A DNA stretch of 64,000 nucleotides from Thermoanaerobaculia bacterium (GCA_041567315.1 JBFGCA010000003.1:15398-79397); one strand, 5' to 3'; shown: positions 24,470 through 38,590, numbered from the stretch's first letter. Made by a program: numbers and translations. Notes: a model not told the origin generated them from the sequence alone.

Positions 24470-24748
24470 GTGATCGTCGGGTTCAAGCACCGTGACCTGG
24501 CGCGGTTCTTCCATTCCGGCGATGCGCGGGGGTTGAAGGCGAGTCATGTCCCGAAGGTCCGGCGCATCCTGGCGCGGCTCAATGCGGCGACGTCGACGCG
24601 CGACCTCGATGCTCCGGGTCTAAGGCTGCATCGTCTCAAGGGAGCCCGAAAGGCTGAGTGGGCCGTGGACGTCGATCGGAACTGGCGCATAACCTTCACC
24701 TTCGACGGTCGCAACTGCAGCCAGGTGAACTATGAGGACTATCACTGA
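24470..24748 (+). CDS. higB: HigB-type (RelE/ParE superfamily) toxin
   Basis: Track [27 protein letters not shown] and WRITFTFDG are typical of HigB killer proteins. Toxin-first gene order. See the note on start-region register in noticed_but_rejected. Confidence 0.8.
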
Positions 24749-24761
24749 CGAGGAACGGACC

Positions 24762-25049
24762 ATGATGCACGACCCTCCACATCCCGGTGAGATCTTGAGG
24801 GTGGACTACCTGGAGCCGCTAGGGCTGACGGTCACCGAGGCCGCCAGGGCTCTGGGCGTTGCGCGCAAGACATTGTCTGCCGTTCTCAACGAGCGGGCGG
24901 GCGTCAGCCCAGCCATGGCCTACCGGCTGTCCAAGGCGTTCCGCACCAGCCCCGAGTTCTGGGTCAATTTGCAGTCGCAGTACGACCTGTGGCAGGCGAG
25001 AGGGGTCGAGCTTGGAAGGGTCCGGCGTCTGGTGGCGGCCCGCGCCTGA
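24762..25049 (+). CDS. higA: HigA-type antitoxin (XRE HTH)
   Basis: ATG 24762 ([12 protein letters not shown]) inside track ORF 24732..25049, with GAGGAA upstream. [54 protein letters not shown]. Confidence 0.85.
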
Positions 25050-25133
25050 GCAGAACGCCGACTGGCAGCAAACGATGCGGTGGCCCGGCACCGCTGACGC
25101 GGGGCATTTTCGTGTTCTTGCAGGAGGGAGCCC

Positions 25134-26519
25134 ATGGACTCGACGGTTTCTCACTACCTGGAAACCCGCCCTCTCGCTCGACGTGCACTTGAAACAGCCG
25201 CCTTGTTGTCCATCGGCCTGTGCTCGGCGGCAACGGCCGGCGGTTTTCCCGCCATCACGCCGCTGGTGGTCGAGGGCGACTCGGTGCCGGGCGTGGGGCT
25301 GGTGACGACGATCGACAATCTGGCGGTCAACGACGCCGGCGACTGGCTGGTGGAGGCCGACACCGACGCCGATCCGGCGGCCGACTCGGTGCTGCTGCGC
25401 GACGGGGCGCTGGGTCTGCGCGAGGGCGACCCGCTGGACGGCCCGGCGGGGATCGAGCTCGGGAGTTTCGACTCGGTGACCCTCAACGACCTGGGGCAGA
25501 GCGGGTTCAATTTCTTTCTCGACGGCGCCGCCGCCGGCGAGGACAGCTCGGTCCACGCCTATCTCGACACCGCGGCGCCGCTGCTCACCGGCACCGTACT
25601 GGTGGTCCAGGAGGGAAGCGAGGCGCCCGACTTGACGCCGGGCACCCCGCTCATCGGCTTCTTCGACGTCAAGATCAACGACCTCGAACAGCTCCTGGTC
25701 ACCGCCAGCGTCGACGACCCGGCGATTCCCACCACCGTCGACCGCGCGCTCTACGTCTGGACCAGCGACAGCGGCAGCGGCGGCATCGTCACCAGCACCC
25801 TGATCGCCGCCGAGGGGGACGTGCTGCCGGGCCAGGCGGCCGGCCTCACCGACTTCGGGACCGGCCCGCACGAGACCGCCCTCAGCGACGCCGGCGACGT
25901 GCTCTTCGCGGTCGACGTCCCTGGCGCCGACGCCATCTACCTCTGGGACGGCGGCTTCAGCGAGGTGGCGCAGGAGGGCGACCCGTCGCCGGTCGGCGGC
26001 CGCTCCTGGTCCAGCCTCACCGGCACCTCGCTGGACCTCAACGCCGCCGGCCAGGAGACCTACCGCGGCACCCTCGACGGCGACCCGGCCACCGCCACCC
26101 TGCTGGTCCGCGACGGCGCCAAGCTGGTCCAGGAGGGCGACACCCTGGGCGCGATCGGCGGCGTCTTCACCCTCACCGGCTTCGGCACCGGCCCGCTCGA
26201 GATCAGCGACGGTGGTGAGGTGCTCTGGTACGGCGACTGGGACGACCCCGACACCGACGTCGACACCGGTCTGTTCCTCGACGACCGCCTGCTGGTCCAG
26301 GAAGGAGTCACCGCCGTCCCCGGCCTCGGCGTCGTCGACACCCTCCGCGGCGTCACCGACGGCTACCACATGTCGAACGACGGCCGCTACGTGATCTTCG
26401 AAGCCGTCCTCGCCGGCGGCCTCGAAGGCGCCTTCCTCCTCGACCGCGGCCCCGCCCTCATCTTCACCGACGGCTTCGAATCCGGCGACACCACGGCCTG
26501 GTCGGGCGCGGTGCCGTGA
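25134..26519 (+). CDS. Secreted repeat protein (NxxGxxAF-like tandem repeats) with FESGD-type C-terminal tail
   Basis: Track ORF with AGGAGGGA upstream. Hydrophobic leader ALETAALLSIGLCSAATAGG. Recurring VNDAGDWLV, LNDLGQSGFNF, LSDAGDVLFAV, ISDGGEVLWYG and SNDGRYVIFEA. Ends IFTDGFESGDTTAWSGAVP-stop. Confidence 0.8.
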   Translation: MDSTVSHYLETRPLARRALETAALLSIGLCSAATAGGFPAITPLVVEGDSVPGVGLVTTIDNLAVNDAGDWLVEADTDADPAADSVLLRDGALGLREGDPLDGPAGIELGSFDSVTLNDLGQSGFNFFLDGAAAGEDSSVHAYLDTAAPLLTGTVLVVQEGSEAPDLTPGTPLIGFFDVKINDLEQLLVTASVDDPAIPTTVDRALYVWTSDSGSGGIVTSTLIAAEGDVLPGQAAGLTDFGTGPHETALSDAGDVLFAVDVPGADAIYLWDGGFSEVAQEGDPSPVGGRSWSSLTGTSLDLNAAGQETYRGTLDGDPATATLLVRDGAKLVQEGDTLGAIGGVFTLTGFGTGPLEISDGGEVLWYGDWDDPDTDVDTGLFLDDRLLVQEGVTAVPGLGVVDTLRGVTDGYHMSNDGRYVIFEAVLAGGLEGAFLLDRGPALIFTDGFESGDTTAWSGAVP

Positions 26520-26584
26520 AGCTGATGTTCGAAAAAGCGCCTCGTCGCTGACGGGAGGCCTCTGGAGGAGCCCTGGTCTAGCCT

Positions 26585-26590
26585 TATAAT
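26585..26590 (+). promoter_or_regulatory. Perfect -10 box TATAAT, 10 nt upstream of ATG 26601
   Basis: Consensus hexamer in GC-rich DNA just upstream of the antitoxin start. Weak or no -35. Confidence 0.45.
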
Positions 26591-26600
26591 CACGGTTGAG

Positions 26601-26822
26601 ATGACGAAGGCTGAGCTGCAGGCAAAGGCTCTCGAGCTACCGGAGGAGGAACGTCGAGCGCTCGCCATGGTGCTTCTTGACAGCACGCTGCCGCCGCTCA
26701 CGCCGAAACAGCAGGCGCTCATCGAGGAGCGCCTCGCGTCCTACAACGGCGACCCCGACTCCTGGCTCAGCCAGGAAGAGTTCGACCAGCAGCTGAGGAA
26801 ACGCCTGTCGCGCGGCGCATGA
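26601..26822 (+). CDS. Addiction-module antitoxin (TIGR02574-like component)
   Basis: Track ORF. MTKAELQAKALELPEEERRALAMVLLDS...SWLSQEEF matches the usual pattern of this antitoxin family. The stop overlaps the toxin start as ATGA. Confidence 0.7.
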   Translation: MTKAELQAKALELPEEERRALAMVLLDSTLPPLTPKQQALIEERLASYNGDPDSWLSQEEFDQQLRKRLSRGA

Positions 26823-27112
26823 AGCGCCGTTACCAGTTCGGCGTCCTCGAAGAGGTTGCCGAGGCTGTCGAGTATCTGGAGAGCCGGCGCCCGGGTCTGG
26901 GCGTGCGGTTCCGTGCGTCGCTCGAACGCACCCTGGTCTTCATCGAAGCGTTCCCCGAAGCTGCACCCGTGGTCTACCGGCGGGCACGTCGAACGATTGT
27001 CGGCGACTTCCCGTAGAACGTGATCTACGAGTCACGCGGCGAGGCGTTGCTCATCATCGCGGTTCTTCACGGCGCCAGGGATCCACAAGAGTGGCGTCGG
27101 CGGGTGGGTTGA
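26819..27112 (+). pseudogene. ParE/RelE-family toxin interrupted by an in-frame TAG at codon 66
   Basis: Track ORF 26819..27016 ends ...RTIVGDFP-TAG. The same frame continues NVIYESRGEALLIIAVLHGARDPQEWRRRVG-TGA (to 27112). This is the conserved toxin C-terminus (..FPY.I.Y......I.AV.H..RDP..W), and the TAG sits where family members usually carry Tyr. Confidence 0.7.
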
Positions 27113-27375
27113 ACTGGTTCACGGCCCGGCAAGGCTCGGTTGACGACCGCGAAGAAGCCCGCGCCCGAGCTGGCGTGGTTGTTCTCGGAGCTGCCGACAG
27201 ACGGGGAGGAGCTGCGGTTCGAGTTCGAGCCGCTGGCCAAGACGCTGGCCGAGCTGGCGCTCAATCCGGCCAACCGGACGCCGTGGCGGAGTGGCTCCCA
27301 GCGCGGCTCGTGATCATTCTCGGGTGGGTTTCTCTCGGGGTAGGGTGAAAGGTCTTGTTACGGAAGGAGTCGAGA

Positions 27376-27426
27376 ATGAAGGTCCGCACCAAGGTCAAGG
27401 CCGGCGGCTTCGCCTGGGCCGACTAA
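27376..27426 (+). CDS. Tiny ORF, 16 aa (MKVRTKVKAGGFAWAD), speculative
   Basis: ATG 27376 preceded by GGAAGGAG at ideal spacing. TAA stop. Sits in a locally AT-richer, ORF-free gap. No other support. Confidence 0.2.
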   Translation: MKVRTKVKAGGFAWAD

Positions 27427-27497
27427 GGCCGGAGGCATTCCGCGCCACGCCCGGCACGGAGCCGCGCGCTCGGTGGATGGGCAGTCTGCAGGTGCCG

Positions 27498-28346
27498 TCA
27501 CGGCTTGCGGAAGCTCGTCACGGTCCGCAGGAGGTCGTGCAGGTAGGGCGCGCCGATGCTGGCCAGCAGGCCGGTCAGCAGCGAGCCGATGAACTGGTAG
27601 AGAAACTCCAGCAGGGTCGGCTTGGGCTGCGTCCAGATGGCGCCGACGCCGAAGTCCACCTCGCTGCGGAAACGGTCGAGCTCGGCTGCCCACGCCGCCC
27701 GGTCTCTGCCGAGGGCGGCGTGGTCTGTTTCTGCGCTCGGGCTCGGGTTCGCGGCCGGCGGCTCCGGGGTCGCCGGCGGATCCAGCGACCCTGCTGCCGC
27801 GGCCGGAGTGGCGGGCGGCTCCATCTCTTCGCCGTTCTCCTCCTGCCCCTCGGCCTGCTCCAGGACCTTGGCCACGTACTCGTCGGAGCTGAACTTGGTC
27901 CGCAGCTCGCCGTTCTCGTAGAGCGTCTGCCAGATGGTGAAGGCGTTGACGTTGAGCAGCAGGCAGAGCGCCGTGCCGCAAGCCAGGGTCAGGTTCTTCA
28001 TGCGCTTCTCGAAGGCGAAGTCGAGGGCCGACTTGTGAACCGCCAGGCGGGCCGCGAGGTCGGAGAGGTCGAGCCTCGAATTGATCTTTTGGAGGATCGG
28101 CTTGAGATTATTGGGGTCGAGCAGCTCGCCGCCGACGTTGCGCCAGTCGATGCCGCCGAGGGCCGACTCCAGTTTCTTGAGGGTCATGCCGGGCAGCGGG
28201 AGCAGCACCCGCTCCAGCTCGCGGCGGAAGTTCTGGCTGTAGTACTGCACGTGGTTCTTCACCACGCTGGTCAGGCTCTTGATGAGGAACGAGAGCAGCA
28301 GCATGACCACCGCGAAGCCGATGACGGTGTCGATGAGCGTCAGCAT
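27498..28346 (-). CDS. Hypothetical membrane protein (3 hydrophobic segments, acidic Pro-rich linker)
   Basis: Track ORF with clean GC3 codon usage. N-terminus MLTLIDTVIGFAVVMLLLSFLI, central LTLACGTALCLLLNVNAFTIW, C-terminal LLEFLYQFIGSLLTGLLASIGAP. No family recognised. Confidence 0.75.
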   Translation of the reverse strand: MLTLIDTVIGFAVVMLLLSFLIKSLTSVVKNHVQYYSQNFRRELERVLLPLPGMTLKKLESALGGIDWRNVGGELLDPNNLKPILQKINSRLDLSDLAARLAVHKSALDFAFEKRMKNLTLACGTALCLLLNVNAFTIWQTLYENGELRTKFSSDEYVAKVLEQAEGQEENGEEMEPPATPAAAAGSLDPPATPEPPAANPSPSAETDHAALGRDRAAWAAELDRFRSEVDFGVGAIWTQPKPTLLEFLYQFIGSLLTGLLASIGAPYLHDLLRTVTSFRKP

Positions 28347-28349
28347 GGC

Positions 28350-28877
28350 TCAGCCCTCCTCGCCCGACGCCGGAGCGACGGCGTCGATCGGAGTCGGTGG
28401 CCGGCCTGTGGGTGGACCGGCGCAGGCGCGGGTCGGGGGAGCGGCCATCAGACCGTTCTGCGAGAAGGGGCCGGCGCCGAACGCGAACAGCAGCAGCGGC
28501 ACGGTGACGGCCAGCGCCAGGTAGAGGCGGCGGTAGCCGTCCAGCTCGACGAGGGGCTTCAGCGCGCCGGCCACCGGCTCGGCCAGCGCGAGCTGCGGGT
28601 AGGCGCCGGCCAGGCTGTCCGCCGCCGGCAACAGAGCGAGATACAGCACCAGCCAGAGGGTGGCCAGCACCGCGATCGTCCAGCTCACACGGATCGGCGT
28701 CGACCAGTGATGGAACCCCTTGCCGCCCCGCCAGGCCGCGAGCGAGATCGCCAGCAGCGCCACCAGGCTCCACGCCAGGCGGCCGGCGCCGGCGACCAGT
28801 GCGCCGGCGATGGCCAGCGCCACCAGGGCGGCGGCGAGCCGTTGCCAGATGGACCAGGTCCTCCAGATCATCGTCAC
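28350..28877 (-). CDS. Hypothetical integral membrane protein (~4 TM helices)
   Basis: Track ORF with GGGAGG upstream of ATG 28877. The stop is 3 nt from the start of the downstream gene. No family recognised. Confidence 0.7.
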   Translation of the reverse strand: MTMIWRTWSIWQRLAAALVALAIAGALVAGAGRLAWSLVALLAISLAAWRGGKGFHHWSTPIRVSWTIAVLATLWLVLYLALLPAADSLAGAYPQLALAEPVAGALKPLVELDGYRRLYLALAVTVPLLLFAFGAGPFSQNGLMAAPPTRACAGPPTGRPPTPIDAVAPASGEEG

Positions 28878-29030
28878 CTCCCGGGTCTCGACGACCCTGC
28901 CGCGGCCGCCCGGGACGGGCAGCCGAGCGTAGTGCTTTGAGAGCTGGGGGCCATCTTAGCCCGGGCGGGACGACCCGGACGCCCCCGCCGGCCTCCGCCC
29001 GGTCCGGCCGAGGGCCCGACAGCCGGGGAT

Positions 29031-29060
29031 TTGACTAGAGGGCCGGGCTGGTACCAGACT
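29031..29060 (+). promoter_or_regulatory. Putative promoter of the orphan RHH gene
   Basis: TTGACT (29031-29036), 18 nt, CAGACT (29055-29060), 7 nt, ATG 29068. Geometry identical to 37848..37877. ACTGTAG is conserved in both. Confidence 0.45.
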
Positions 29061-29067
29061 GTAGGGG

Positions 29068-29358
29068 ATGGCCAAGCGGGACGCTCGCGCCTGGCGGCTC
29101 AACCGGGACTTGCAGACCTCGCTCGAGGAGATGGCGCGGCGGCGGCAGATGACCGTCGCCGAGCTGCTGGAGCGGATCAACCAGGAGTGGCTGGCCGAGA
29201 CGGCCGGCCGCAGACCGGGCCTGGCCCAGGCGTCCCGGCGCGCGGCGGGTGACCTGGTGGAGGCCGTCCGCGGCGAGGAGCGGCGCCGGGCCGCCGTGGC
29301 CCGCCCGCGGCCTCCCAGGCGGCCGCGAACCCGCCGCGGCCACGCGCCGGAGGAGTAG
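29068..29358 (+). CDS. Ribbon-helix-helix-type antitoxin paralog, orphan (no adjacent toxin)
   Basis: Track ORF. MAKRDARAWRLNRDLQTSLEEMARRRQMTVAELLERINQEWL aligns with MAKTEVYSWRVSRDLKLSLEEMARQRRVSVGKLLEQITEEWI of 37885..38178. Confidence 0.65.
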   Translation: MAKRDARAWRLNRDLQTSLEEMARRRQMTVAELLERINQEWLAETAGRRPGLAQASRRAAGDLVEAVRGEERRRAAVARPRPPRRPRTRRGHAPEE

Positions 29359-29418: not shown

Positions 29419-30015
29419 CTAGCGAGGTGCGCCCACCGCCACGACGTAGACCGGCTCGTGGTTCCGCGACAGGCCCAGCCCCTTGCGCAGCCTGGCCTTC
29501 CAGAACGCCCCGACCGCCACTCCGCCCAGCCCCAGCGCAACGGCCTCGAGGAGCAGGTTCTGGGCCGCGTGGCCGGCCTCCAGGTAGACGTAGCGGTAAG
29601 CGTCGGCTTTGCCGTATCTGCGCGCCGTCCGCTCGAACACCGCCGCGAACACGAAGACCGCCGGCGCCTCGAGAATCAGCTCCTGCTCGACGGCCGCGTC
29701 GTAGATCAGCCGCCGCGCGTCGGCGCCGGGCAGACGTTTCAGCCGATGGCCGTCCGGGTCGTAGTGGAAGAGCCCGTCCGCGGTCGCCACGTACGTTTCG
29801 AGCGGCCGCAGCCCGCCGGCCGACGGCGCCGTCCGGTCCCCCTCCTCGTTGGTCACTCCCTGCGCCGCCCAGAGGAGCTGCGACAGGTCGGCGGCGCTGA
29901 GCGCGCGTGCCGCGAACTCCCGCACCGACCGCCGGTGGGCCAGCGTGTGCTCGAGCGAGGTGCGCCCCCGGGTCCGCGGTGGTGGCAGTCGAGTCCAGTT
30001 CTTCCGGGGTGACAT
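29419..30015 (-). CDS. SagB-type / nitroreductase-family dehydrogenase
   Basis: Track ORF. RRSVREF, PSAGGLRPLETYV and YRYVYLEAGHAAQNLLLEAVALGLG. Confidence 0.8.
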   Translation of the reverse strand: MSPRKNWTRLPPPRTRGRTSLEHTLAHRRSVREFAARALSAADLSQLLWAAQGVTNEEGDRTAPSAGGLRPLETYVATADGLFHYDPDGHRLKRLPGADARRLIYDAAVEQELILEAPAVFVFAAVFERTARRYGKADAYRYVYLEAGHAAQNLLLEAVALGLGGVAVGAFWKARLRKGLGLSRNHEPVYVVAVGAPR

Positions 30016-30063
30016 CGCTCACTCCGCAGGGCGCCGGTACCAGGATACTCATTCGACCCTGCC

Positions 30064-30069
30064 TATAAT
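30064..30069 (+). promoter_or_regulatory. Perfect -10 box TATAAT upstream of the AsnB-like operon
   Basis: TATAAT lies 37 nt upstream of GTG 30107, with GAGGGAG as Shine-Dalgarno in between. Confidence 0.4.
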
Positions 30070-30106
30070 CCGCTGCGACAGTCAACCCGTCCCGAGGGAG
30101 ATTCCC

Positions 30107-31450
30107 GTGGCCACACCCCTGCACCGCGTCGTCAACCTGATCGATCCCGCGACCCAGGCCCTGGGGGCGGTCCCGCTTGCCACTGCCGAGGAGCTGCTGG
30201 TCCGCCGGCCGGAGGAGCTGGAGCGGCTGCCGGGGTCGTTCGCCCTGGTGGCGCGCGACGGCGAGCGGGTGCTGATGGCGCGCAGCCTGGACCGGCCGTT
30301 GCGCTACTTCCTGGCCAAGGAGCCGGACGGGCCGATGCTGGTGGTGGCCGAGCGCATCGACCAGATCCGCGACTTCCTGGCCGGCGAGGGCTACGCGCAT
30401 CAGTTCCACCCCAGCTACACGCGGATGGTGCCGGCGCACCACGTGACGACGCTGCGGCTGATCGGCTGTCCCGACCCCAATCCGACCCACCGGCGGTTCT
30501 TCGCGCCGCCGCGGGCGAGCGGCCCCGCCGATCTGGACGCGATCGGGGCGGCCTACGTCGGCGCCCTCTACGAGGAGGTGCGGCGGTGGGCGGCGCGGCT
30601 CGACGCCGGGGAGCCGATCGGCGTCCTCTTCTCGGGCGGGGTAGACAGCGGTGCGGTCCTCTTGTGCGTCGAGCGGGCGCTGCTCGATCTCGGTCAGAGC
30701 CCGGCGCGGCTCAAGGCGTTCACGCTGTCGGTGGAAGGCTCGGGTGCGGATCTCGAACAGGCGCGCGAGTTCCTGTGCCGCACCGACCGCGAGATGCTCC
30801 ACGAGGCCGTCGAGGTGGGGGAGGGCGATCTCGATCCTTTCGAGGCGGTGCGGGTCATCGAGGACTACAAGCCGCTCGACGTCGAGTGCGCCACCGTCGC
30901 CCTGGCCCTGCTGCGCGGCATCCGCGAGCGCTACCCCGACTGGCGGTACCTGGCCGACGGCGACGGCGGCGACGAGAACCTCAAGGACTACCCGGTCGAG
31001 GAGAACCCGGAGCTCACCATCCGCAGCGTGGTCAACAACTCGATGCTCTACCAGGAGGGCTGGGGGGTGGAGGCCGTCAAGCACTCGCTGACCTACAGCG
31101 GCGGCTTCAGCCGCTCGTGCGTGCGCACCTTTGCGCCGCTGCGGCGCTATGGCTTCCAGGGCTTCAGCCCGCTCACCCGGCCGGCGGTCGTCCGGGTCGC
31201 CGAGGCGATCCGGTTCGACGAGCTGACCCGCGGCTCGACCGCGGCGCTCTACCGGCTCAAGGGCGAGATCGTCCGCCGCGGCATGAAGGCGCTGTTCGAC
31301 CTCGACTTCCCGGTCTTCGAGAAGCGCCGCTTCCAGCACGGCGCGCTCGGCGGCGAGCTGTTCGCGCGCCGGTTCGGTGCCGACGGCGAACGCTACCGGG
31401 AGTACTTCGCCGAGCTGCATCGCGCCGCGCCGCGGGCGGCCTCCGCCTGA
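30107..31450 (+). CDS. Asparagine synthetase (AsnB)-family adenylating enzyme lacking the N-terminal catalytic Cys
   Basis: GTG 30107 inside track ORF 29849..31450. PP-loop GVLFSGGVDSGAVL. Degenerate glutaminase remnant GSFALVARDGERVLMARSLDRPLRYF. The N-terminus VATPLHRV lacks the MCG nucleophile. Confidence 0.75.
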   Translation: MATPLHRVVNLIDPATQALGAVPLATAEELLVRRPEELERLPGSFALVARDGERVLMARSLDRPLRYFLAKEPDGPMLVVAERIDQIRDFLAGEGYAHQFHPSYTRMVPAHHVTTLRLIGCPDPNPTHRRFFAPPRASGPADLDAIGAAYVGALYEEVRRWAARLDAGEPIGVLFSGGVDSGAVLLCVERALLDLGQSPARLKAFTLSVEGSGADLEQAREFLCRTDREMLHEAVEVGEGDLDPFEAVRVIEDYKPLDVECATVALALLRGIRERYPDWRYLADGDGGDENLKDYPVEENPELTIRSVVNNSMLYQEGWGVEAVKHSLTYSGGFSRSCVRTFAPLRRYGFQGFSPLTRPAVVRVAEAIRFDELTRGSTAALYRLKGEIVRRGMKALFDLDFPVFEKRRFQHGALGGELFARRFGADGERYREYFAELHRAAPRAASA

Positions 31451-31463
31451 TCGCGGCGACGAC

Positions 31464-32468
31464 GTGCCGCCGACCCGGACGAGCGCCGCGGGCGAGGACC
31501 GCCGCGTCCGCGCCCTGCGCCCTCCCAAGCCGGCCGTCGACCTCACCCGGCCGCTCGGCGTGCTGGTCGACAAGGAGCGCGGCGCCGCCGGTCCGCCGGT
31601 CGACTGCGTCACCGTCTTCCTGGCCGGGCGCGAGTGCCCGTTCACCTGCGTGTTCTGCGATCTGTGGCGGCACACCACCGACGGGCCGACCCCGGCGGGC
31701 GCCATCCCCCGGCAGCTCCGCCTGGCGCTGGAGGAGATCGGCGGGCTGCCGCCCGGGGCCCGTCTCAAGCTCTACAACGCCAGCAACTTCTTCGACGAGC
31801 TGGCGGTGCCGGGCGCCGACGACGACGAGATCCTGGGGCTCTGCGCGGGCGCGGCGCGCGTGGTCGTCGAGTGTCATCCGAAGCTGGTGGGGCGGCGGTG
31901 CTTCGAGTTCGCGGCGCGGCTCGGGGGCGAGCTGGAGGTGGCGATGGGTCTCGAAACGGTCCACCCCGAGGCGCTGCCGCGGCTCAACAAGAGGATGACC
32001 GTCGAAGACTTCGACCGGGCGGCGCGGCGGCTCACCGGGCGCGGCATCGCCGTGCGGGCGTTCGTGCTGATCGGGGTGCCGTTCGTGCCCTTCGACGATC
32101 AGGTGGAGTGGGCGGTCCGCTCGGTGGAGCACGCCCTGGAGGCGGGCGCCGGGGTGGTCTCGCTGATTCCGGTCCGCGGCGGCAACGGCGAGCTCGAACG
32201 GCTGGCCGCGGCGGGAGAGTTCCGCGAGCCGCGGCTGGATGAGGTCGAGGAGGCGTTCGAGCGGGCGCTCGCAGGAGCGCTGGATAGGGCACCGGACGGG
32301 GCGCTTGGCGGGGGCAGGGGAGTCGTCCAGCTCGACGTCTGGGACCTGGAGCGGCTCGGCGGTTGTCCGGGCTGCGCGGAGCGGCGCCGCGACCGCCTGG
32401 CGCGGATGGCCCTCAGCGGCGAGATCGAGCCGCGGGTCGGCTGTCCGGTCTGCGGTGGGGGCGGCTGA
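31464..32468 (+). CDS. Radical SAM protein (Elp3-type core) with C-terminal CxxC..CxxC zinc ribbon
   Basis: GTG 31464 inside track ORF 31377..32468. CX3CX2C cluster motif GRECPFTCVFCDLW. C-terminal CPGCAERRRDRLARMALSGEIEPRVGCPVCGG. Confidence 0.75.
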   Translation: MPPTRTSAAGEDRRVRALRPPKPAVDLTRPLGVLVDKERGAAGPPVDCVTVFLAGRECPFTCVFCDLWRHTTDGPTPAGAIPRQLRLALEEIGGLPPGARLKLYNASNFFDELAVPGADDDEILGLCAGAARVVVECHPKLVGRRCFEFAARLGGELEVAMGLETVHPEALPRLNKRMTVEDFDRAARRLTGRGIAVRAFVLIGVPFVPFDDQVEWAVRSVEHALEAGAGVVSLIPVRGGNGELERLAAAGEFREPRLDEVEEAFERALAGALDRAPDGALGGGRGVVQLDVWDLERLGGCPGCAERRRDRLARMALSGEIEPRVGCPVCGGGG

Positions 32469-32469
32469 G

Positions 32470-34047
32470 ATGGCCGACCGGTTCGACGTCGCGGTGGTGG
32501 GCTCGGGCTTCGCCGGCTCGATCCTGGCGCGCGCCCTGGCCAGCGCCGGCCGGCGGGTGGCGCTGGTCGAGCGCGCCCGCCATCCCCGCTTCGCCCTCGG
32601 CGAGTCGTCGACCCCGCTCGCCGCCATCGCGCTCGAGCGCCTCGCCCACGCCCACGACATGCCCGACCTGCTCGACCTGGCGAGCTACGGCCGCTGGCTG
32701 CGCCGCCATCCGGAGCTGCGGCGCGGGCTCAAGCGCGGCTTCACCTTCTACCCGCATCGCGCCGGCGAGCCCTACGCCAACGGGCCGCGCAACGAGGCGC
32801 GGCTGCTGGTGGCGGCGAGCCCCGACGACGAAGTGGCCGACAGCCACTGGCTGCGCGCCGACGTCGACGCCGAGTTGGTGCGCCGCGCCGTCGCCGTCGG
32901 CGTCGACTACCGTGACCGCACTGAACTGCGCGAAGCGGAGATCTCCGCGGCCGGCGTGCGGCTACGGGGCAGCCGGGAAGGCGATCCGCTCTCGATCGCC
33001 AGCGAGTTCGTGGTCGACGCCACCGGCGGCGCCGACTTCCTGGCCCGGCACCTGGAGCTCCCGTCGCGCCTCGACCGGGTGCCGTTCGCGAGCCGGCTGG
33101 TGGCCGCCCACTTCGAGGGCGTCCGGCCCTTCGCCGAGGTCGCCGCGGCCGCCGGGGCCGAGCTGCCCTCCGGCCCGTACCCGGACGACCTCGCCGCCGT
33201 GCACCACCTGACCGATCTCGGCTGGCTCTACGCCCTGCGCTTCGACCACGGCGTCACCAGCGCCGGCTTCGTCGTCGATTCGGCGAGGGCCACCAGGCTC
33301 GGCTTCGACTTCGACGCCGGAGACCCGGCCGGAACCTGGCACCGCCTGCTCGAACGCTACCCCTCGCTCCGCGGCCAGTTCGCCGGGGCCGGGCCGCGCG
33401 GCGCGATCGCCGTCACCCCGCGCCTGCAGCGCCGGCTGGGCGCCGCCGCAGGTCCGCGCTGGGCGCTGCTCCCGCACTCGTTCGCCTTCTTCGACCCCCT
33501 GTTCTCGACCGGCATCGCCTGGAGCCTGCTGGGCGTCGAGCGCCTCGCCGCGCTGCTGGCCGACGGCCTCCCCGACGTCGCCGGCCTCCGGGCCTACGAG
33601 ACGCTCCTCGCCGACGAAGCCGAGCACCTGCAGGCCCTTCTCGCCAGCGCCTACCGCCGCTTCGAGGACTTCGGCGCCTTCACCTCGGTGGCCCTGGTCT
33701 ACTTCGCCGCCGCCAGCTTCAACGAGGTCCGCCAGCGCCTCCTGCCGCCGCCCGAGGGCCTCCCTTCCTGGGCCTGGGACGGCTTCCTCGGCGCCCGCGA
33801 TCCGCTGCTCCAGCGGCTCGCGCGAGACGCCGCCACCGCCGGCCCCGACTCCTCCCGCTCGATCCGCGACGCCATCGCCCCGCGCAACGTCGCCGGCCTC
33901 GCCGATCCCGCCCGCCACAACCTCTACCCGGTCGACCTCGACGAACTGGTCCGCTATGCCGGCCTCCTCGGCATGACCGCGGCCGAGATGACCGCCGCCT
34001 TGCCCCGCCTCCGCGGCCGGACTTCCCGCCGCGTCGTCGCCGGCTAG
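32470..34047 (+). CDS. FAD-dependent oxidoreductase, flavin-halogenase/monooxygenase fold
   Basis: ATG 32470 inside track ORF 32239..34047, 1 nt after the upstream stop. Dinucleotide motif VAVVGSGFAGS. FALGESSTP resembles the GES..P motif of halogenase-like flavoenzymes. GWLYALRF occupies the place of WxWxIP. Confidence 0.75.
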   Translation: MADRFDVAVVGSGFAGSILARALASAGRRVALVERARHPRFALGESSTPLAAIALERLAHAHDMPDLLDLASYGRWLRRHPELRRGLKRGFTFYPHRAGEPYANGPRNEARLLVAASPDDEVADSHWLRADVDAELVRRAVAVGVDYRDRTELREAEISAAGVRLRGSREGDPLSIASEFVVDATGGADFLARHLELPSRLDRVPFASRLVAAHFEGVRPFAEVAAAAGAELPSGPYPDDLAAVHHLTDLGWLYALRFDHGVTSAGFVVDSARATRLGFDFDAGDPAGTWHRLLERYPSLRGQFAGAGPRGAIAVTPRLQRRLGAAAGPRWALLPHSFAFFDPLFSTGIAWSLLGVERLAALLADGLPDVAGLRAYETLLADEAEHLQALLASAYRRFEDFGAFTSVALVYFAAASFNEVRQRLLPPPEGLPSWAWDGFLGARDPLLQRLARDAATAGPDSSRSIRDAIAPRNVAGLADPARHNLYPVDLDELVRYAGLLGMTAAEMTAALPRLRGRTSRRVVAG

Positions 34048-34226
34048 CCTGCACTTCTCACCGGGTCGCTCGGCGAGCGGGCGCAGGCGCCTGAAGATGC
34101 GGGGCTTACCGACGGAGGGCACCACAGGCGTACTCGAAGTACGTCGAGGATGCCCGACCGAGGAAAGTCCCGCAGATTCAGGTGCATCCGCCCGCGCAGC
34201 AGGGAGCCGGTGAGAAGTGCAGGCTA
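34045..34226. repeat. 182-bp palindromic element with perfect 20-bp terminal inverted repeats
   Basis: TAGCCTGCACTTCTCACCGG (34045-34064) is the exact reverse complement of 34207-34226. The interior is also imperfectly self-complementary (CCTGAAGATGCGGG / CCCGCAGATTCAGG, central GTACTCGAAGTAC). Both arms include the stop codons of the convergent flanking genes. Confidence 0.8.
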
Positions 34227-35306
34227 GACCGGGCGGATCACTTTCGCCACCCGACCACCGCGGCCGATCTTCACCCGGTAGGCGCGGCCGGCCTGGAATC
34301 CGAGCCACGCCTGTTGGTCGGAAGTCCGGTAGGCGAGCGTCCGGCCGTCGGACGCCGTGAAGTGGACGGTGTAGACGGCGGTGCGCTCTCCCTCCCGTTC
34401 CGAGGGCGCCAGCCGCAGCGCCGGCCATTGAGGCGAGCGCCCCTGATCGCCTGTCTTGGACGTCCGGACGACGCTCCATCGCTCGCGCTCGAAGCGCACC
34501 ATGTCGCGCCCCGGCGGGCCGCGGGCCGGCACTTCGCGGCGCACGGTCTGGTACACCGGCCGGTCCTCGTAGACATCCTCGAAGTAGCCGTTGCCGAGGT
34601 CGCGGACGCCGACCTTGACCCGTTCGGTGCCGATCTGGACGTACTCGGTGACGGTGCGGGTGGCTCCTGTGCCGGCGGACTCGTCGAGCAGCCGGGCACC
34701 GGCCGGGACCTCGCTGCGGCGGGCCTCTTCGACCACCGTCTCGACAGCCTCGATATCGATGGTGCGTTGCCAGGAAAAGCCGGTGACGGTGGCGACGCCC
34801 TCCTCGCGCGAGCCTCCGAGGTAGACGAAGAGCAGCCCCAGCAGCACCAGGACCAGGCACCCGAGGGCCAGCCGCCGCCCGGACCGCCGACGTCCGGTCC
34901 GCTGGTAGCGGCGCTTGAGCTCCTTGCGGCGCGCGGCCGAGGGTCGCTTGCCGGTCGACCGTTGAGTCGCGGCGGCGGGCGCCGCAGCCCGATCCCGGTG
35001 CTCGACGACCTGGCGGTGCTCGGCGCCCTCGCCGGGGGCGCCGCAGCCCGTGCAGTAGTCGGCGTCGGCGCGGTTGTCGCCGCCGCAGAACCCGCACTGC
35101 CAGTCAGCCCCGGAGCCGGCCCGCTTCAGGGCCTCGGCGTCGGTGACCTCGGGGGCGTCCTCGGGGAGGTAGAACTCGACCTCCGGCCCGCGGGGGAATC
35201 CGCAGCCGGCGCAGTACTTCTCCGGACCGCGGTTCGCCCGCCGCCCGCAAGCCGGACAGTCCCAGGCGCCTTCCCGAATGGCCATTGCGGTTCCCATGTC
35301 CCCCAC
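34224..35306 (-). CDS. Membrane protein with two N-terminal zinc ribbons and an unknown extracytoplasmic domain
   Basis: Track ORF. CPACGRRANRGPEKYCAGCG and CGFCGGDNRADADYCTGCG, then TM helix LALGCLVLVLLGLLFVYL, then ~190 aa of unknown domain. Start ambiguous (GTG 35306, ATG 35297 or ATG 35285). Confidence 0.65.
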   Translation of the reverse strand: MGDMGTAMAIREGAWDCPACGRRANRGPEKYCAGCGFPRGPEVEFYLPEDAPEVTDAEALKRAGSGADWQCGFCGGDNRADADYCTGCGAPGEGAEHRQVVEHRDRAAAPAAATQRSTGKRPSAARRKELKRRYQRTGRRRSGRRLALGCLVLVLLGLLFVYLGGSREEGVATVTGFSWQRTIDIEAVETVVEEARRSEVPAGARLLDESAGTGATRTVTEYVQIGTERVKVGVRDLGNGYFEDVYEDRPVYQTVRREVPARGPPGRDMVRFERERWSVVRTSKTGDQGRSPQWPALRLAPSEREGERTAVYTVHFTASDGRTLAYRTSDQQAWLGFQAGRAYRVKIGRGGRVAKVIRPV

Positions 35307-35469: not shown

Positions 35470-35892
35470 CTACCCGCGCCGCGCTCTTGCGAAGACCGGG
35501 GAGATCTCGAGGCGGGGCACGCGCGCGAAGTGGCGCAGGTTGCCGGTGACCAGGGTCAGGCCGTGGCGCAGGGCGGTCGCGGCGATCTGGAGGTCGGCAT
35601 CGGGCAGGAGCTCGCCGCGCTCCTCGAGGTGGGCCCGGAGGGCGCCGAACTCGCGGGCGACTCCGAGATCGTAGGGGAGCACGGTGACGGCCGGGAGCAC
35701 CCGCTCCTCGATGTTCCGGAGGTGGCGATTGCGGTTCTGCGAGCGGTAGGCACCCTTGTACAGCTCGCCGAGCACCACGGCACTGGCGAACTGATGCTCC
35801 CGCGGCACGGTTTCGATCCACTCGAGGTAGCGCGCCGCGGGTCTCGGGCGCAGCAGCTCCGAGATCGCGTCGGTGTCGAAGAGGTAGGCCAA
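35470..35892 (-). CDS. vapC: PIN-domain toxin VapC
   Basis: Track ORF. MAYLFDTDAISELLR and ADLQIAATALRHGLTLVTGNLRHF are typical VapC signatures. Confidence 0.85.
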   Translation of the reverse strand: MAYLFDTDAISELLRPRPAARYLEWIETVPREHQFASAVVLGELYKGAYRSQNRNRHLRNIEERVLPAVTVLPYDLGVAREFGALRAHLEERGELLPDADLQIAATALRHGLTLVTGNLRHFARVPRLEISPVFARARRG

Positions 35893-35901
35893 GCCGGTGC
35901 C

Positions 35902-36180
35902 TCAGTCGAGCTCGGGAATCCGGCGGCCGGCCGTGCGACCGTACTCCAGGGCTTTCTCCGCCACCTCCTCCGACCCCTCCCACCCCCCGGCCAGGCTGGC
36001 CAGCCCGCCCGCGGGACCGGCGGCCCTCAGACGTTCGACCTCCTCGAACAGATCCATGGGGACCAGCGCGACGACCCGCCTGCCGTGCCGGGTCAGCACC
36101 ACGGGCTCGCCGCTCTCGGCCTGGCGGACACACTCGGAGAAATGGGCCTTGGCGTCGACGATGGAGCGGCTCGTTGGCAT
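35902..36180 (-). CDS. Phd/YefM-family antitoxin
   Basis: ATG 36180 inside track ORF 35902..36216. SIVDAKAHFSECVRQAESGEPVVLTRHGRRVVALVPMD. CATAAT (complement of 36187-36192) lies 6 nt upstream of the start. Confidence 0.8.
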   Translation of the reverse strand: MPTSRSIVDAKAHFSECVRQAESGEPVVLTRHGRRVVALVPMDLFEEVERLRAAGPAGGLASLAGGWEGSEEVAEKALEYGRTAGRRIPELD

Positions 36181-36364
36181 GAGGTCATTATGATCCTTCA
36201 GACCGTTTCCATGCAAGCTCGGCTACGTTGCCCTCCTCCGAGTCCCACCGCTCGAGGTGCAGCGCGATTGCGGAACCGAGGGGTTGCGGCGTTCCTGCGG
36301 GGTCGCGCGGGAGGGCTGATACAGTCCTCTCAACATCTGCTCTCGGTAACTGGGGAGGTCGTCG

Positions 36365-37402
36365 ATGATCCCGAGATCACCGCTCATGCGGTCCTTCGCG
36401 CTGCTTCTCGTCTTCGGTTCGGCGTCGCCGTCGGAAGCGCAGGATCCGTGCACGCTGACGCCGTACGACGGAACCAACGAGAACGGTCTGGGGGCCGCGC
36501 CGGGGTTCGTCATCGAGTACTGCTCGGAGATGGACGTGCCCGAGACGTGCGTCGATCGGGGGAGCTACTTCATCAACGCGGTCCAGGTCGAGGCGACCCA
36601 GACCGGCGGCGACACGACGATGCCGTACACGGCGCAGGTGCGGCGGGCCGTCTTCGCTTCGCGGCTGGGGCCGATCCCGCCCGGGGAGATCGTCGCCGGC
36701 CCGACCCGCGACGTGGCCCAGGGCGTGCCGACGTTTCCGGCCTCGCAGACCTGGGTGACGCCGGTCTTCGACGCCGCCGGCGGCTTCTCGGTCGGTTTCG
36801 ACGCCATCCAGCTCACCTCCGCCTGCGGGGTCCTCGACGGGAACCAGACCGCGAACCAGTTCTTCGGCACCGACGAGACCTCCGCCACGCCCATCAACCT
36901 GTGCTGGAAGGGCGATCCGCCCGCGCCGCCGGCGGAGGACTGCCGGGTCGGAGCCCCCAACCTCCGATCGCTGCGGGTCGGGCTGCAGGTCGCCCCGCAC
37001 GGTGGGAGCGCCGACGGCGACCAGGAAGTGCCGCCGGTCAACACCACGGCCACCGGCACCGTGCGGCTGGGACCCAACACCCCCGGCGGGACCGACTTCT
37101 GGCTCGAGGTGGTCCACGACGTGTCGAGCCCCACCGGAGCCCACATCCACGACGCTCCGGCCGGCGACAACGGGCCGATCGTCGTCGACCTCGGCGACCC
37201 GACCAGCCCCATCGTCCTCGCCAGCGTGGACATGACCGGGCTCATCGACGAGCTCTTCGCCGGCACCCTGTACGTCAACGTCCACTCCGTGGTCAACCCG
37301 GGCGGCGAGATCCGCGGCCAGATCCTCAACTCCGGGGACAACATCTTCGCCGACGGCTTCGAGAGCGGCGACACCGCCTCCTGGTCGAGCAGCGTGCCCT
37401 GA
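36365..37402 (+). CDS. Secreted CHRD-domain protein with FESGD-type C-terminal tail
   Basis: Track ORF with GGGGAGG upstream. Signal peptide MRSFALLLVFGSASPSEAQ. CHRD-like GDQEVPPVNTTATGTVRL...AHIHDAPAGDNGPIVVDL...LYVNVHSVVNPGGEIRGQI. Ends IFADGFESGDTASWSSSVP-stop. Confidence 0.8.
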   Translation: MIPRSPLMRSFALLLVFGSASPSEAQDPCTLTPYDGTNENGLGAAPGFVIEYCSEMDVPETCVDRGSYFINAVQVEATQTGGDTTMPYTAQVRRAVFASRLGPIPPGEIVAGPTRDVAQGVPTFPASQTWVTPVFDAAGGFSVGFDAIQLTSACGVLDGNQTANQFFGTDETSATPINLCWKGDPPAPPAEDCRVGAPNLRSLRVGLQVAPHGGSADGDQEVPPVNTTATGTVRLGPNTPGGTDFWLEVVHDVSSPTGAHIHDAPAGDNGPIVVDLGDPTSPIVLASVDMTGLIDELFAGTLYVNVHSVVNPGGEIRGQILNSGDNIFADGFESGDTASWSSSVP

Positions 37403-37504
37403 CCGCCGGGCGCGGTCTTCCCCGGAGGGTCGTGGACGGGTCTTCGTAGGTGTCTTATACGCACAGAAGAGTATTGTGCGTTCCAGGTCGCCGCCCAACC
37501 GCTC

Positions 37505-37828
37505 GTGTTCCTCGACTACCTGATCGAGGAGCCCGTCCAGGCCGTGATCGTGGGCGGGCGCGGCGTCTTGGTCAACGTCCCGCAGCCAGCTCGCTTCGCG
37601 CTCCACAAGCTCTGGACCGCGGGCCAGCGACCCCCCGCCGAGCAGGCCAAGGTCCGCAAAGACCGCCGGCAGGCGGCCGCCCTTCTCGAGGTCCTGCTGG
37701 AGGATCGACCCGGAGACGTGTCCCGGGCATGGAAGCCGCTCCGCCGCCGCTCGGCCGGACGGCTGATCCGCGAGTCCCTGGATCACCTGCCCGAGCCGTT
37801 GGCAGCAAGAATCAAGAAACTACGGTGA
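37505..37828 (+). pseudogene. Probable C-terminal remnant of a nucleotidyltransferase-fold (GSU2403-like) protein
   Basis: Track ORF of 107 aa. PARFALHKLWTAGQRP..EQAKVRKDRRQAAALLEVLLEDRPGDV resembles, from memory, the C-terminal third of that family. There is no room for the N-terminal NTase core, because the previous gene ends at 37402. Confidence 0.35.
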
Positions 37829-37847
37829 GTGGTCCTGAGCAAGACGG

Positions 37848-37877
37848 TTGACAGGAGGCCGCGTTTTGCACCACACT
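37848..37877 (+). promoter_or_regulatory. Putative promoter of the RHH-PIN operon
   Basis: TTGACA (37848-37853), 18 nt, CACACT (37872-37877), 7 nt, ATG 37885. Same geometry as 29031..29060. Confidence 0.45.
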
Positions 37878-37884
37878 GTAGTGC

Positions 37885-38178
37885 ATGGCGAAGACGGAAG
37901 TCTACAGCTGGCGCGTGTCGCGGGATCTCAAGCTGTCGCTCGAGGAGATGGCGAGACAGCGGCGGGTGAGCGTGGGAAAGCTCCTCGAGCAGATCACCGA
38001 GGAGTGGATCGAAGCTTCAGAGGGGCCCGAGCGGGAACTCGAGCAGGAACGGCTCCGCGCCGCCGCGGGGCCCTTCATCGGTTCGCTGAGCGGTGGCGAC
38101 CCGCGCCGCGCCGAGCAGGCACGCCGCCGGATACGCGAGCGCTTGGGCCGTCGCCATGGACGCGCGCGGGCTGGCTGA
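37885..38178 (+). CDS. Ribbon-helix-helix-type antitoxin (VapB-like)
   Basis: Track ORF. Overlaps the downstream PIN gene by 23 nt. Paralog of 29068..29358. Confidence 0.7.
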   Translation: MAKTEVYSWRVSRDLKLSLEEMARQRRVSVGKLLEQITEEWIEASEGPERELEQERLRAAAGPFIGSLSGGDPRRAEQARRRIRERLGRRHGRARAG

Positions 38179-38590
38179 CACGGGCGCCCTGCTAGCGCTG
38201 CTGGACCGCGACGATCGCTGGCACGAGAGCTGCGCCGCGGCCTTTGCCGAGCTCCGCCTGCCGCTGGCCACCTCGGCCGCCGTCCTGGCCGAGCTCTTCC
38301 ACCTGCTGGGCGATCACCCGGCCGACCAGAAGGCGGCCTGGGGCTTCCTGCGCTCGGGCGCCGTCACCGTCCTGCCCATCACCGACCGCGACCTGCCGGG
38401 CCTCGAAGAGCTCATGGACCGCTACCGCGACCGCCCGATGGACTTCGCCGACGCCACCCTGGTCCACCTCGCCCGCCGCGAGTCCCTGACCACCATTTTC
38501 ACCATCGACCACGACGATTTCGAGACCTACCGCATCGCCGGCCGCCGCCGCTTCCGCATCACCCCCTCTCGTCCCCGGCGCCACCGCTGA
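38156..38590 (+). CDS. vapC: PIN-domain toxin (VapC-like)
   Basis: ATG 38156 (MDARGLADTGALLALLDRDD) inside track ORF 38093..38590. DFADATLVHLARRESLTTIFTIDHDDF is PIN-typical. Confidence 0.8.
   Translation: MDARGLADTGALLALLDRDDRWHESCAAAFAELRLPLATSAAVLAELFHLLGDHPADQKAAWGFLRSGAVTVLPITDRDLPGLEELMDRYRDRPMDFADATLVHLARRESLTTIFTIDHDDFETYRIAGRRRFRITPSRPRRHR

Follow-up and report, generated by a model that had tools for sequence, protein, structure and literature searches.

A conserved three-gene operon for an AsnB-like ligase, a radical SAM enzyme and a halogenase-fold flavoprotein, and its co-distribution with a secreted TPR/FG-GAP/ASPIC protein family

What does a bacterium make with a compact operon that combines an asparagine synthetase (AsnB)-like ligase, a radical S-adenosylmethionine (SAM) enzyme and a flavoprotein of the halogenase fold? 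The question is raised by a 64,000-nt stretch of DNA from a Thermoanaerobaculia bacterium (GCA_041567315.1 JBFGCA010000003.1:15398-79397), referred to here as the window, and all coordinates count from its first letter. The initial annotation described these three genes together with a divergent SagB-type dehydrogenase and could match the combination to no characterised pathway; our full-text literature searches likewise found no description of the trio or of a matching characterised pathway. Comparison of related loci shows that the conserved unit consists of three genes and not of three plus one.

A unit of three genes around a core of two

The elements of the operon and its divergent neighbour are:

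30064-30069, plus strand: TATAAT, a -10-like box 5' of the operon, read directly
30094-30100, plus strand: Shine-Dalgarno sequence GAGGGAG, 6 nt ahead of the GTG start, read directly
30107-31450, plus strand: predicted AsnB-like PP-loop adenylating ligase, GTG start to stop, 447 amino acids (aa)
31464-32468, plus strand: radical SAM enzyme, GTG start to stop, 334 aa, 13 nt past the AsnB-like stop
32470-34047, plus strand: halogenase-fold flavoprotein, ATG start to stop, 525 aa, 1 nt past the radical SAM stop
29419-30015, minus strand: SagB-type nitroreductase-family gene, 198 aa, outside the conserved unit

The positions and spacers of three tightly packed genes behind a TATAAT box and a Shine-Dalgarno sequence were as first annotated, and every motif quoted at that stage (SGGVDS, CPFTCVFC, the C-terminal CxxC..CxxC, GSGFAGS, FALGESSTP, GLKRGFTF and GWLYALRF) lies in the gene to which it had been assigned. 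Pfam and NCBIfam agree with the proposed families (Asn_synthase, Radical_SAM, Trp_halogenase plus DAO, and Nitroreductase). A strict sigma-70 consensus scan upstream of the operon returned no complete -35/-10 promoter, so the promoter evidence consists of the -10-like box; several related loci likewise have a TAGAAT- or TATAAT-like box 20-40 nt 5' of their first gene.

About 150 related loci were examined in all, first ~85 from genomes and metagenomes and then 80 more from a metagenome scan seeded with a 46% relative, together with a sample of 301 genomes of the window's phylum. In essentially all of the 85 loci with a contig of sufficient length, tblastn places the radical SAM and flavoprotein genes directly downstream of the AsnB-like gene. 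The same order recurs in three unrelated genomic contexts and persists in more distant clades (46-61% identity), so that neighbourhood comparison bears out the three co-directional genes as a real operon that is co-conserved across genomes. Clustering of all flanking open reading frames (ORFs) revealed no further gene common to different phyla, and only lineage-specific synteny, for example with tmk and holB.

The same comparison disposes of the divergent gene. This nitroreductase-family gene scores 106 bits against TIGR03605 (SagB; cut-off 78) and is separated from the trio by 91 nt. One could imagine a four-gene system in which it acts as dehydrogenase or flavin reductase of the trio, as in this genome both share that divergent promoter region, and nitroreductase-family proteins can reduce flavins, which would suit a two-component halogenase with its need for reduced flavin. 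However, the flanks of all other related loci (~85, plus the more distant clades) contain no homologue, two genomes of the same family have none at E <= 1e-5, and in more distant relatives the weak homologues lie on other contigs, none of them near the trio. In the window the gene sits within a toxin-antitoxin-rich patch specific to this genome; there is also no YcaO family gene among the conserved neighbours of the trio. We therefore reject the SagB-type gene as a fourth member of the set and regard a four-gene system as extremely unlikely.

Thousands of close relatives of the AsnB-like protein (62-76% identity) come from assemblies of Acidobacteriota, Thermoanaerobaculia, Gemmatimonadota and 'Deltaproteobacteria' (Myxococcota), and no cultured host is named among the top family matches listed. 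In the AsnB-like tree a Gemmatimonadota clade (support 99) is split from an Acidobacteriota clade (96) with two exceptions, and, as the tree largely follows the phyla, descent of the trio appears to be mostly vertical. The nearest named entries to the window's gene are Vicinamibacterales metagenome-assembled genomes, and the phylum assigned to the window's genome is taken from such named relatives of its genes. The cassette is single-copy and present in 27 of the 301 genomes of the phylum, including 10 of the 12 sampled from the window's order, the window's own genome among them. The trio is, as far as our searches reach, one of the more widespread enzyme operons without an assigned product. 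At least 8000 scored protein clusters are among the matches listed, and hundreds of bacterial species that live in soil, fresh water, the sea or saline settings and belong to at least four phyla carry it.

A tree of 162 sequences resolves three groups. The first is a deep high-G+C clade with the complete trio. The second unites a low-G+C clade from saline and soda-lake settings, which also has the trio, with a clade of 38 loci that possess the ligase and radical SAM genes and no flavoprotein gene; one member of the latter carries the NCBI name Bacteroidales bacterium, and we refer to it as the Bacteroidales clade. The third group comprises Acidobacteriota and Myxococcota, with Gemmatimonadota nested inside. 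In the Bacteroidales clade the pair persists without the flavoprotein, often with a 4-nt overlap between its two genes, and only two changes in the presence of the flavoprotein are seen over the whole tree; the ligase and radical SAM enzyme are therefore the obligate core, and the flavoprotein is dispensable, having been lost in this clade. Diverged ligase-radical SAM pairs also occur in loci L090 and L091. Three library representatives that looked like fusions of the two proteins (P0152, P0164 and P0225, 490-760 aa) turned out to be frameshifted gene calls in noisy assemblies and not true fusions.

The three enzymes and their nearest relatives

The motifs to which the following comparisons refer are:

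30632-30649, plus strand: PP-loop motif SGGVDS, residues 176-181 of the AsnB-like protein
Residues 284-296 of the AsnB-like protein, plus strand: invariant block DGDGGDENLKDYP, from the alignment of orthologues
31635-31658, plus strand: CPFTCVFC, residues 58-65 of the radical SAM protein
32364-32453, plus strand: C-terminal CxxC...CxxC (C301xxC304...C327xxC330) of the radical SAM protein
32500-32520, plus strand: GSGFAGS, the flavin adenine dinucleotide (FAD) motif of the flavoprotein
32731-32733, plus strand: Lys88 (in GLKRGFTF), aligning with the Lys of CtcP and PltM
33220-33243, plus strand: GWLYALRF, aligning with GWMWIIPF and GWLWVIPF of CtcP and PltM
33487-33513, plus strand: FFDPLFSTG, the FxDPxFSxG motif of the flavoprotein

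The first protein matches Asn_synthase in Pfam (E 1.4e-10) and scores 37 bits against TIGR01536, for which the cut-off is 267. It begins VATPLH (V/M-A-T-P-L-H in the family) and no Cys2 is conserved in 79 orthologues, so that the N-terminal nucleophile (Ntn) of the AsnB glutaminase is lacking, while the PP-loop SGGVDS and an acidic DGDGGDE block are invariant. An AlphaFold2 model (pLDDT 86) can be aligned along its whole length with its best folds in the PDB, namely beta-lactam synthetase (1mc1, TM 0.63), human ASNS, E. coli AS-B and CarA (0.60). As these are two-domain AsnB-fold enzymes aligned from end to end, the model indicates that the N-domain is a real remnant, a shortened Ntn-type fold without its Cys, much as was supposed when the gene was first annotated.

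In its two-domain fold, PP-loop and loss of the Ntn Cys the ligase resembles beta-lactam synthetase, carbapenam synthetase, lasso cyclases and TsnB9. The identity is nevertheless only 14-19%, its profile match to beta-lactam synthetase has an E-value of 0.008 over 40 residues, its N-domain (~135 aa) is shortened by comparison, and no clavulanate, carbapenem or lasso partner genes accompany it. Neither is it a truncated ordinary asnB, as had been considered possible at the outset: it belongs to a distinct and tight full-length family (440-447 aa), and its genome encodes four canonical AsnB proteins elsewhere (355-476 bits against TIGR01536). Orthologues remain 62-76% identical across phyla, and in an alignment spanning two phyla about 30% of positions reach at least 98% invariance. 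A search of 1.8 billion cluster representatives yields no more than 680 proteins at E <= 0.001, and clustering at 50% places nearly all of the close full-length relatives together. Such conservation is like that of a housekeeping enzyme and points to a defined, important substrate.

Two distant AsnB-like homologues were considered as a clue from context. One (L092:6193-8389, archaeal contig, 42%) has a haem-oxygenase-like gene (PF14518, weak) 4 nt upstream; the other (L087:6517-11658, from a bacterial metagenome-assembled genome, 40%) has a Peripla_BP_6 binding protein upstream, with a 782-aa sensor-like protein and a sigma-54 activator downstream. Neither has a radical SAM partner, so they are uninformative for the trio clade.

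The second protein matches Radical_SAM in Pfam, and its best NCBIfam match is TIGR01210 (RaSEA) with 59 bits against a cut-off of 212, followed by MnmL/YtqA. The same holds for all 25 aligned members, with RaSEA best (down to E 1e-23), MnmL second and every score below the 212-bit cut-off. The three Cys of the CX3CX2C cluster motif are invariant in 68 of 68 sequences; the C-terminal CxxC...CxxC is kept in 61-63 of the 68 and in the Bacteroidales form. Its AlphaFold2 model (pLDDT 92) is closest to the radical SAM domains of Elp3, the tRNA cm5U synthase (TM ~0.55), so that the term 'Elp3-type', given to it together with the CPFTCVFC motif and the ribbon Cys, is correct at the level of the fold. 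Unlike Elp3, however, the 334-aa protein has no acetyltransferase (KAT/GNAT) domain, Radical_SAM being its only Pfam match, and no Elp3 family match is obtained at E <= 0.01.

The third protein matches Trp_halogenase and DAO in Pfam and contains FALGESSTP. In PDB sequences it is closest to the tetracycline 7-halogenase CtcP (3e-37) and to PltM (2e-32), over ~350 aligned residues. Among 62 orthologues the catalytic Lys88 is invariant, each Gly of the FAD motif G11-x-G13-x-x-G16 is present in 61, and the F, P and G of F-x-D-P-x-F-S-T-G never vary, the remaining positions being kept in 50-61. All three features are shared with CtcP/PltM-type halogenases. Differences from these are the family motif G-W-[ML]-Y-x-L-[RP]-F in place of WxWxIP (the second Trp is Tyr in 61/62, Ile is Leu in 62/62 and Pro is kept in 14/62), the lack of a polyketide or phenolic pathway context, and a gene that is dispensable in one clade. 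The initial annotation took this motif change as a sign of a monooxygenase-like role; the change holds throughout the orthologues, whereas the role does not follow from it. As the catalytic Lys is invariant and the motif a conserved near-variant that retains Pro in 14 sequences, the sequence appears to fit a halogenase about equally as well as a monooxygenase.

If the flavoprotein were a true halogenase, the trio might be a minimal secondary-metabolite cluster that converts a primary metabolite into a halogenated or oxidised bioactive small molecule. The closeness to CtcP and PltM, the Lys and the strongly kept FxDPxFSxG are what such a cluster would predict, as are a ligase fold nearest to beta-lactam synthetase and the patchy occurrence of the cassette within the phylum. 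We nonetheless think this quite unlikely. The identity across phyla and the mostly vertical descent are unusual for genes of this kind, no genes for transport, regulation, resistance or scaffold formation are conserved with them, a whole clade dispenses with the flavoprotein, and the second Trp of WxWxIP is replaced almost throughout.

A possible secreted partner and the candidate chemistry

The first handle on the function of the trio comes from its neighbours. In the Bacteroidales clade the ligase-radical SAM pair forms the tail of a tightly packed co-directional operon that encodes, in order, a KdsA-like protein, a Peripla_BP_6/ANF_receptor protein, a ~1190-aa TPR/FG-GAP_3/UnbV_ASPIC lipoprotein, a second FG-GAP/ASPIC protein, the ligase and the radical SAM enzyme. 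An FG-GAP/ASPIC gene adjoins the cassette in 27/27 evaluable Bacteroidales loci and in 24/27 evaluable Gemmatimonadota loci. The latter show two architectures, upstream divergent and downstream convergent, both beside SusC/SusD genes, and Gemmatimonadia genomes have only 4-7 ASPIC genes each.

The protein concerned is a large (~1150-aa) secreted TPR/FG-GAP/ASPIC protein whose last ~430 residues, the C-terminal part that we call the CTD, have no match in Pfam, NCBIfam or PDB sequences. The CTD is well conserved: its identity is 50-57% between the Bacteroidales and Gemmatimonadia neighbours of the cassette, and 37-39% to genes that three Acidobacteriota families carry at 0.1-8 kb from the trio. 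In all of these groups the CTD-bearing form is thus either an immediate neighbour of the cassette or no more than 8 kb away. A position beside the cassette that recurs in separate clades, and in at least three architectures, speaks for a functional link between the cassette and the CTD protein.

Distribution points the same way. The UnbV_ASPIC domain occurs in 161 of the 301 genomes and in all 27 with the trio. The CTD protein itself is found in 124, namely 26/27 trio genomes and 98/274 others, the sole trio genome without a match being an assembly in 940 contigs that is 83% complete. Counted by genome, the hypergeometric P is 3e-10; by family, 12/12 trio families are among the 42 with the CTD (of at least 88 families; P ~5e-5), neither value being corrected for phylogeny. 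The presence of the CTD protein predicts where the cassette can occur. To our knowledge, no bacterial function is known for CRTAC1-like proteins, and the co-distribution makes both orphans testable together. In the window's genome the protein is encoded outside the window:

Contig C8:55638-59216: single-copy gene for the secreted CTD protein, ~1145 aa, with signal peptide, TPR, FG-GAP repeats, UnbV_ASPIC and the 430-aa CTD; 72% G+C around the gene

The reading that we favour, to which we would assign a probability of roughly 0.4, is a composite one in which ligation is followed by radical cleavage, with an optional flavoprotein step. The ligase would first turn a carboxylate into an acyl-adenylate and then couple it to an amine, either that of an amino acid or an intramolecular one; as the enzyme lacks the glutaminase nucleophile, glutamine-derived ammonia is not the expected partner. 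The radical SAM enzyme would then perform a radical C-N or C-C cleavage or rearrangement on this adduct; the analogy here is with RaSEA and MnmL, both of which take the carbon skeleton off an N-linked amino acid. In loci that have it, the flavoprotein might contribute a late oxidation or halogenation. As substrate, a small molecule or something connected with the secreted CTD protein is more likely than tRNA or a locally encoded peptide; the connection with the CTD protein is suggested by its adjacency to, or co-distribution with, the cassette.

The analogy is drawn from the archaeosine synthase of Euryarchaeota, ArcS-RaSEA (RaSEA being TIGR01210), where one of two proteins attaches an amino acid via its nitrogen and a small radical SAM enzyme removes the carbon skeleton. 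Both systems have two tightly or translationally coupled genes, and RaSEA is the best curated match of the trio radical SAM protein in 25 of 25 members. The differences are considerable. The score of 59 bits falls well short of the family cut-off, the match to the RaSEA profile does not extend to the C-terminal Cys4 motif, and the partner is an ATP-dependent AsnB-fold ligase instead of a TGT-like/PUA ArcS. Furthermore, the trio is bacterial, usually has the third, flavoprotein gene, and is independent of QueC. If the pair does work like ArcS-RaSEA, the combination of an amino-acid nitrogen donor with radical dealkylation would be a general solution and no archaeal oddity.

Several observations weigh against the ligation-cleavage reading and its tie to the CTD protein. 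All curated family matches of the trio proteins are far below their cut-offs, and the PDB fold search with the radical SAM model returned no RaSEA structure; given this and the low RaSEA score, the N-dealkylation step is an analogy. The acidic isoelectric points (pI) of all three proteins (medians 5.7, 5.7 and 6.2) are weak evidence against RNA binding, and the gene for a substrate peptide or protein could lie elsewhere. The window itself shows no link to the CTD protein, as its genome has exactly one CTD gene and this lies on another contig than the trio. The association is also one-way, since most genomes with the CTD protein lack the trio, and it could reflect shared lifestyle or ecology, or island structure such as SusC/SusD-rich loci.

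Among the alternatives, a system for post-translational modification draws on the same association. The trio would then modify a peptide or protein encoded elsewhere, possibly the CTD protein before export, with the ligase forming an isopeptide or amide bond, the radical SAM enzyme a crosslink or a cleavage, and the flavoprotein hydroxylating or halogenating a residue. There are AsnB-like enzymes with peptide substrates, such as the lasso cyclases and those of the recent nitrile-forming and fosfazinomycin cases, and the trio is adjacent to and co-distributed with one specific secreted protein. A precedent is the maturation of the quinohemoprotein amine dehydrogenase gamma subunit, in which QhpD, a radical SAM enzyme, and the halogenase-fold flavoprotein QhpG, which hydroxylates a peptidyl Trp, jointly act on a protein that is still in the cytoplasm but bound for the periplasm (PMC7876137). 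QhpG, GoxB and LodB are among the NCBIfam matches of the trio flavoprotein. These QhpG-type matches cover mainly the N-terminal Rossmann/FAD-binding part, however, and the strong matches are small-molecule halogenases. The radical SAM enzyme lacks a SPASM domain, there is no QhpC-like peptide, and no leader-recognition (RRE/PqqD), protease or exporter gene, as expected for ribosomally synthesised and post-translationally modified peptides, is conserved near the trio. As most genomes with the CTD protein do without the trio, that protein does not need it.

A precursor peptide near the trio, the search for which had been suggested at the outset, was not found either: when all 25-130-aa frames within 2 kb were clustered, no small-ORF family was shared between phyla, and only phylum-restricted alternative-frame clusters emerged, which argues against a conserved precursor next to the trio. 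Upstream regions have no k-mers shared across lineages and no credible Rfam hit that would indicate a leader or riboswitch. On balance we consider modification of a protein by the trio unlikely.

The relatives of the radical SAM enzyme raise another alternative, a bacterial counterpart of ArcS-RaSEA or MnmL-type chemistry that acts in tRNA or nucleoside modification on a carboxylate-bearing modified base. The nearest curated families (RaSEA and MnmL/YtqA) and the nearest folds (Elp3) are all tRNA enzymes, PP-loop enzymes often act on tRNA, and variable flanks with few partners are typical of modification genes. Pfam, however, detects no RNA-binding domain in the trio proteins, which are all acidic, and an association with a secreted protein and SusC/SusD loci is unexpected for a tRNA enzyme.

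The distribution of QueC also weighs against this alternative. None of the 12 genomes sampled from the window's order encodes it (G000, G005, G119, G131, G176, G186, G196, G206, G236, G266, G276 and G296), where only PP-loop noise of ~22 bits is seen; ten of these bear the trio, several in closed genomes, and two lack it. The other 16 trio genomes tested do have QueC. Thus QueC occurs independently of the trio, and a dependence on the 7-deazaguanine pathway can be ruled out as far as de novo preQ0 is concerned. As Tgt is present in all genomes tested, salvage is possible, and the order probably takes up a queuosine precursor rather than making preQ0. Taken with the points above, a role in tRNA modification seems distinctly improbable.

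A bolder form of the ligation-cleavage reading sees in the ligase and the radical SAM enzyme an unrecognised machine of this type, for example one for glutamine-independent amidation with an amino acid as masked ammonia, the product of which serves or modifies the secreted TPR/beta-propeller/ASPIC protein with the CTD. This would be a long shot; if true, a widespread family of cell-surface proteins would have its own maturation or cofactor system in the cytoplasm.

Immediate surroundings of the operon

The setting of the operon was described initially as accessory-looking and rich in toxin-antitoxin genes. This is correct for the window's genome, where Pfam identifies HigB/HTH, Unstab_antitox, RHH and PIN/Phd neighbours, but not for other genomes, whose loci have different flanks, and the gene tree is mostly congruent with the phyla. 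Type II toxin-antitoxin modules or remnants flank the operon at 24470-29358 and 35470-38590 (HigB/HTH, Unstab_antitox with a short ParE-like ORF, RHH, PIN/Phd and RHH/PIN). The locus of the closest relative (L002) has flanks quite unlike those of the window.

The 3' end of the operon is bounded by a repeat:

34044-34227, no strand assigned: palindromic dispersed repeat of 184 bp, before a convergent zinc-ribbon gene

Its arms of 27 nt are 93% complementary, and its terminal CTAG provides the stop codon for both the flavoprotein gene and the convergent zinc-ribbon gene. The 21-nt terminal arm CTAGCCTGCACTTCTCACCGG occurs twice in the window against 0 expected. At least seven further complete copies, with arms 163 nt apart, are present on other contigs of the genome, and single arms occur elsewhere, some near contig ends. 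The palindrome looks like an element of the MITE (miniature inverted-repeat transposable element) or REP (repetitive extragenic palindromic) type.

Two secreted-looking proteins encoded in the window (25134-26519 and 36365-37402) end in nearly identical C-terminal tails, IFTDGFESGDTTAWSGAVP and IFADGFESGDTASWSSSVP, which suggests a common C-terminal sorting or anchoring signal.

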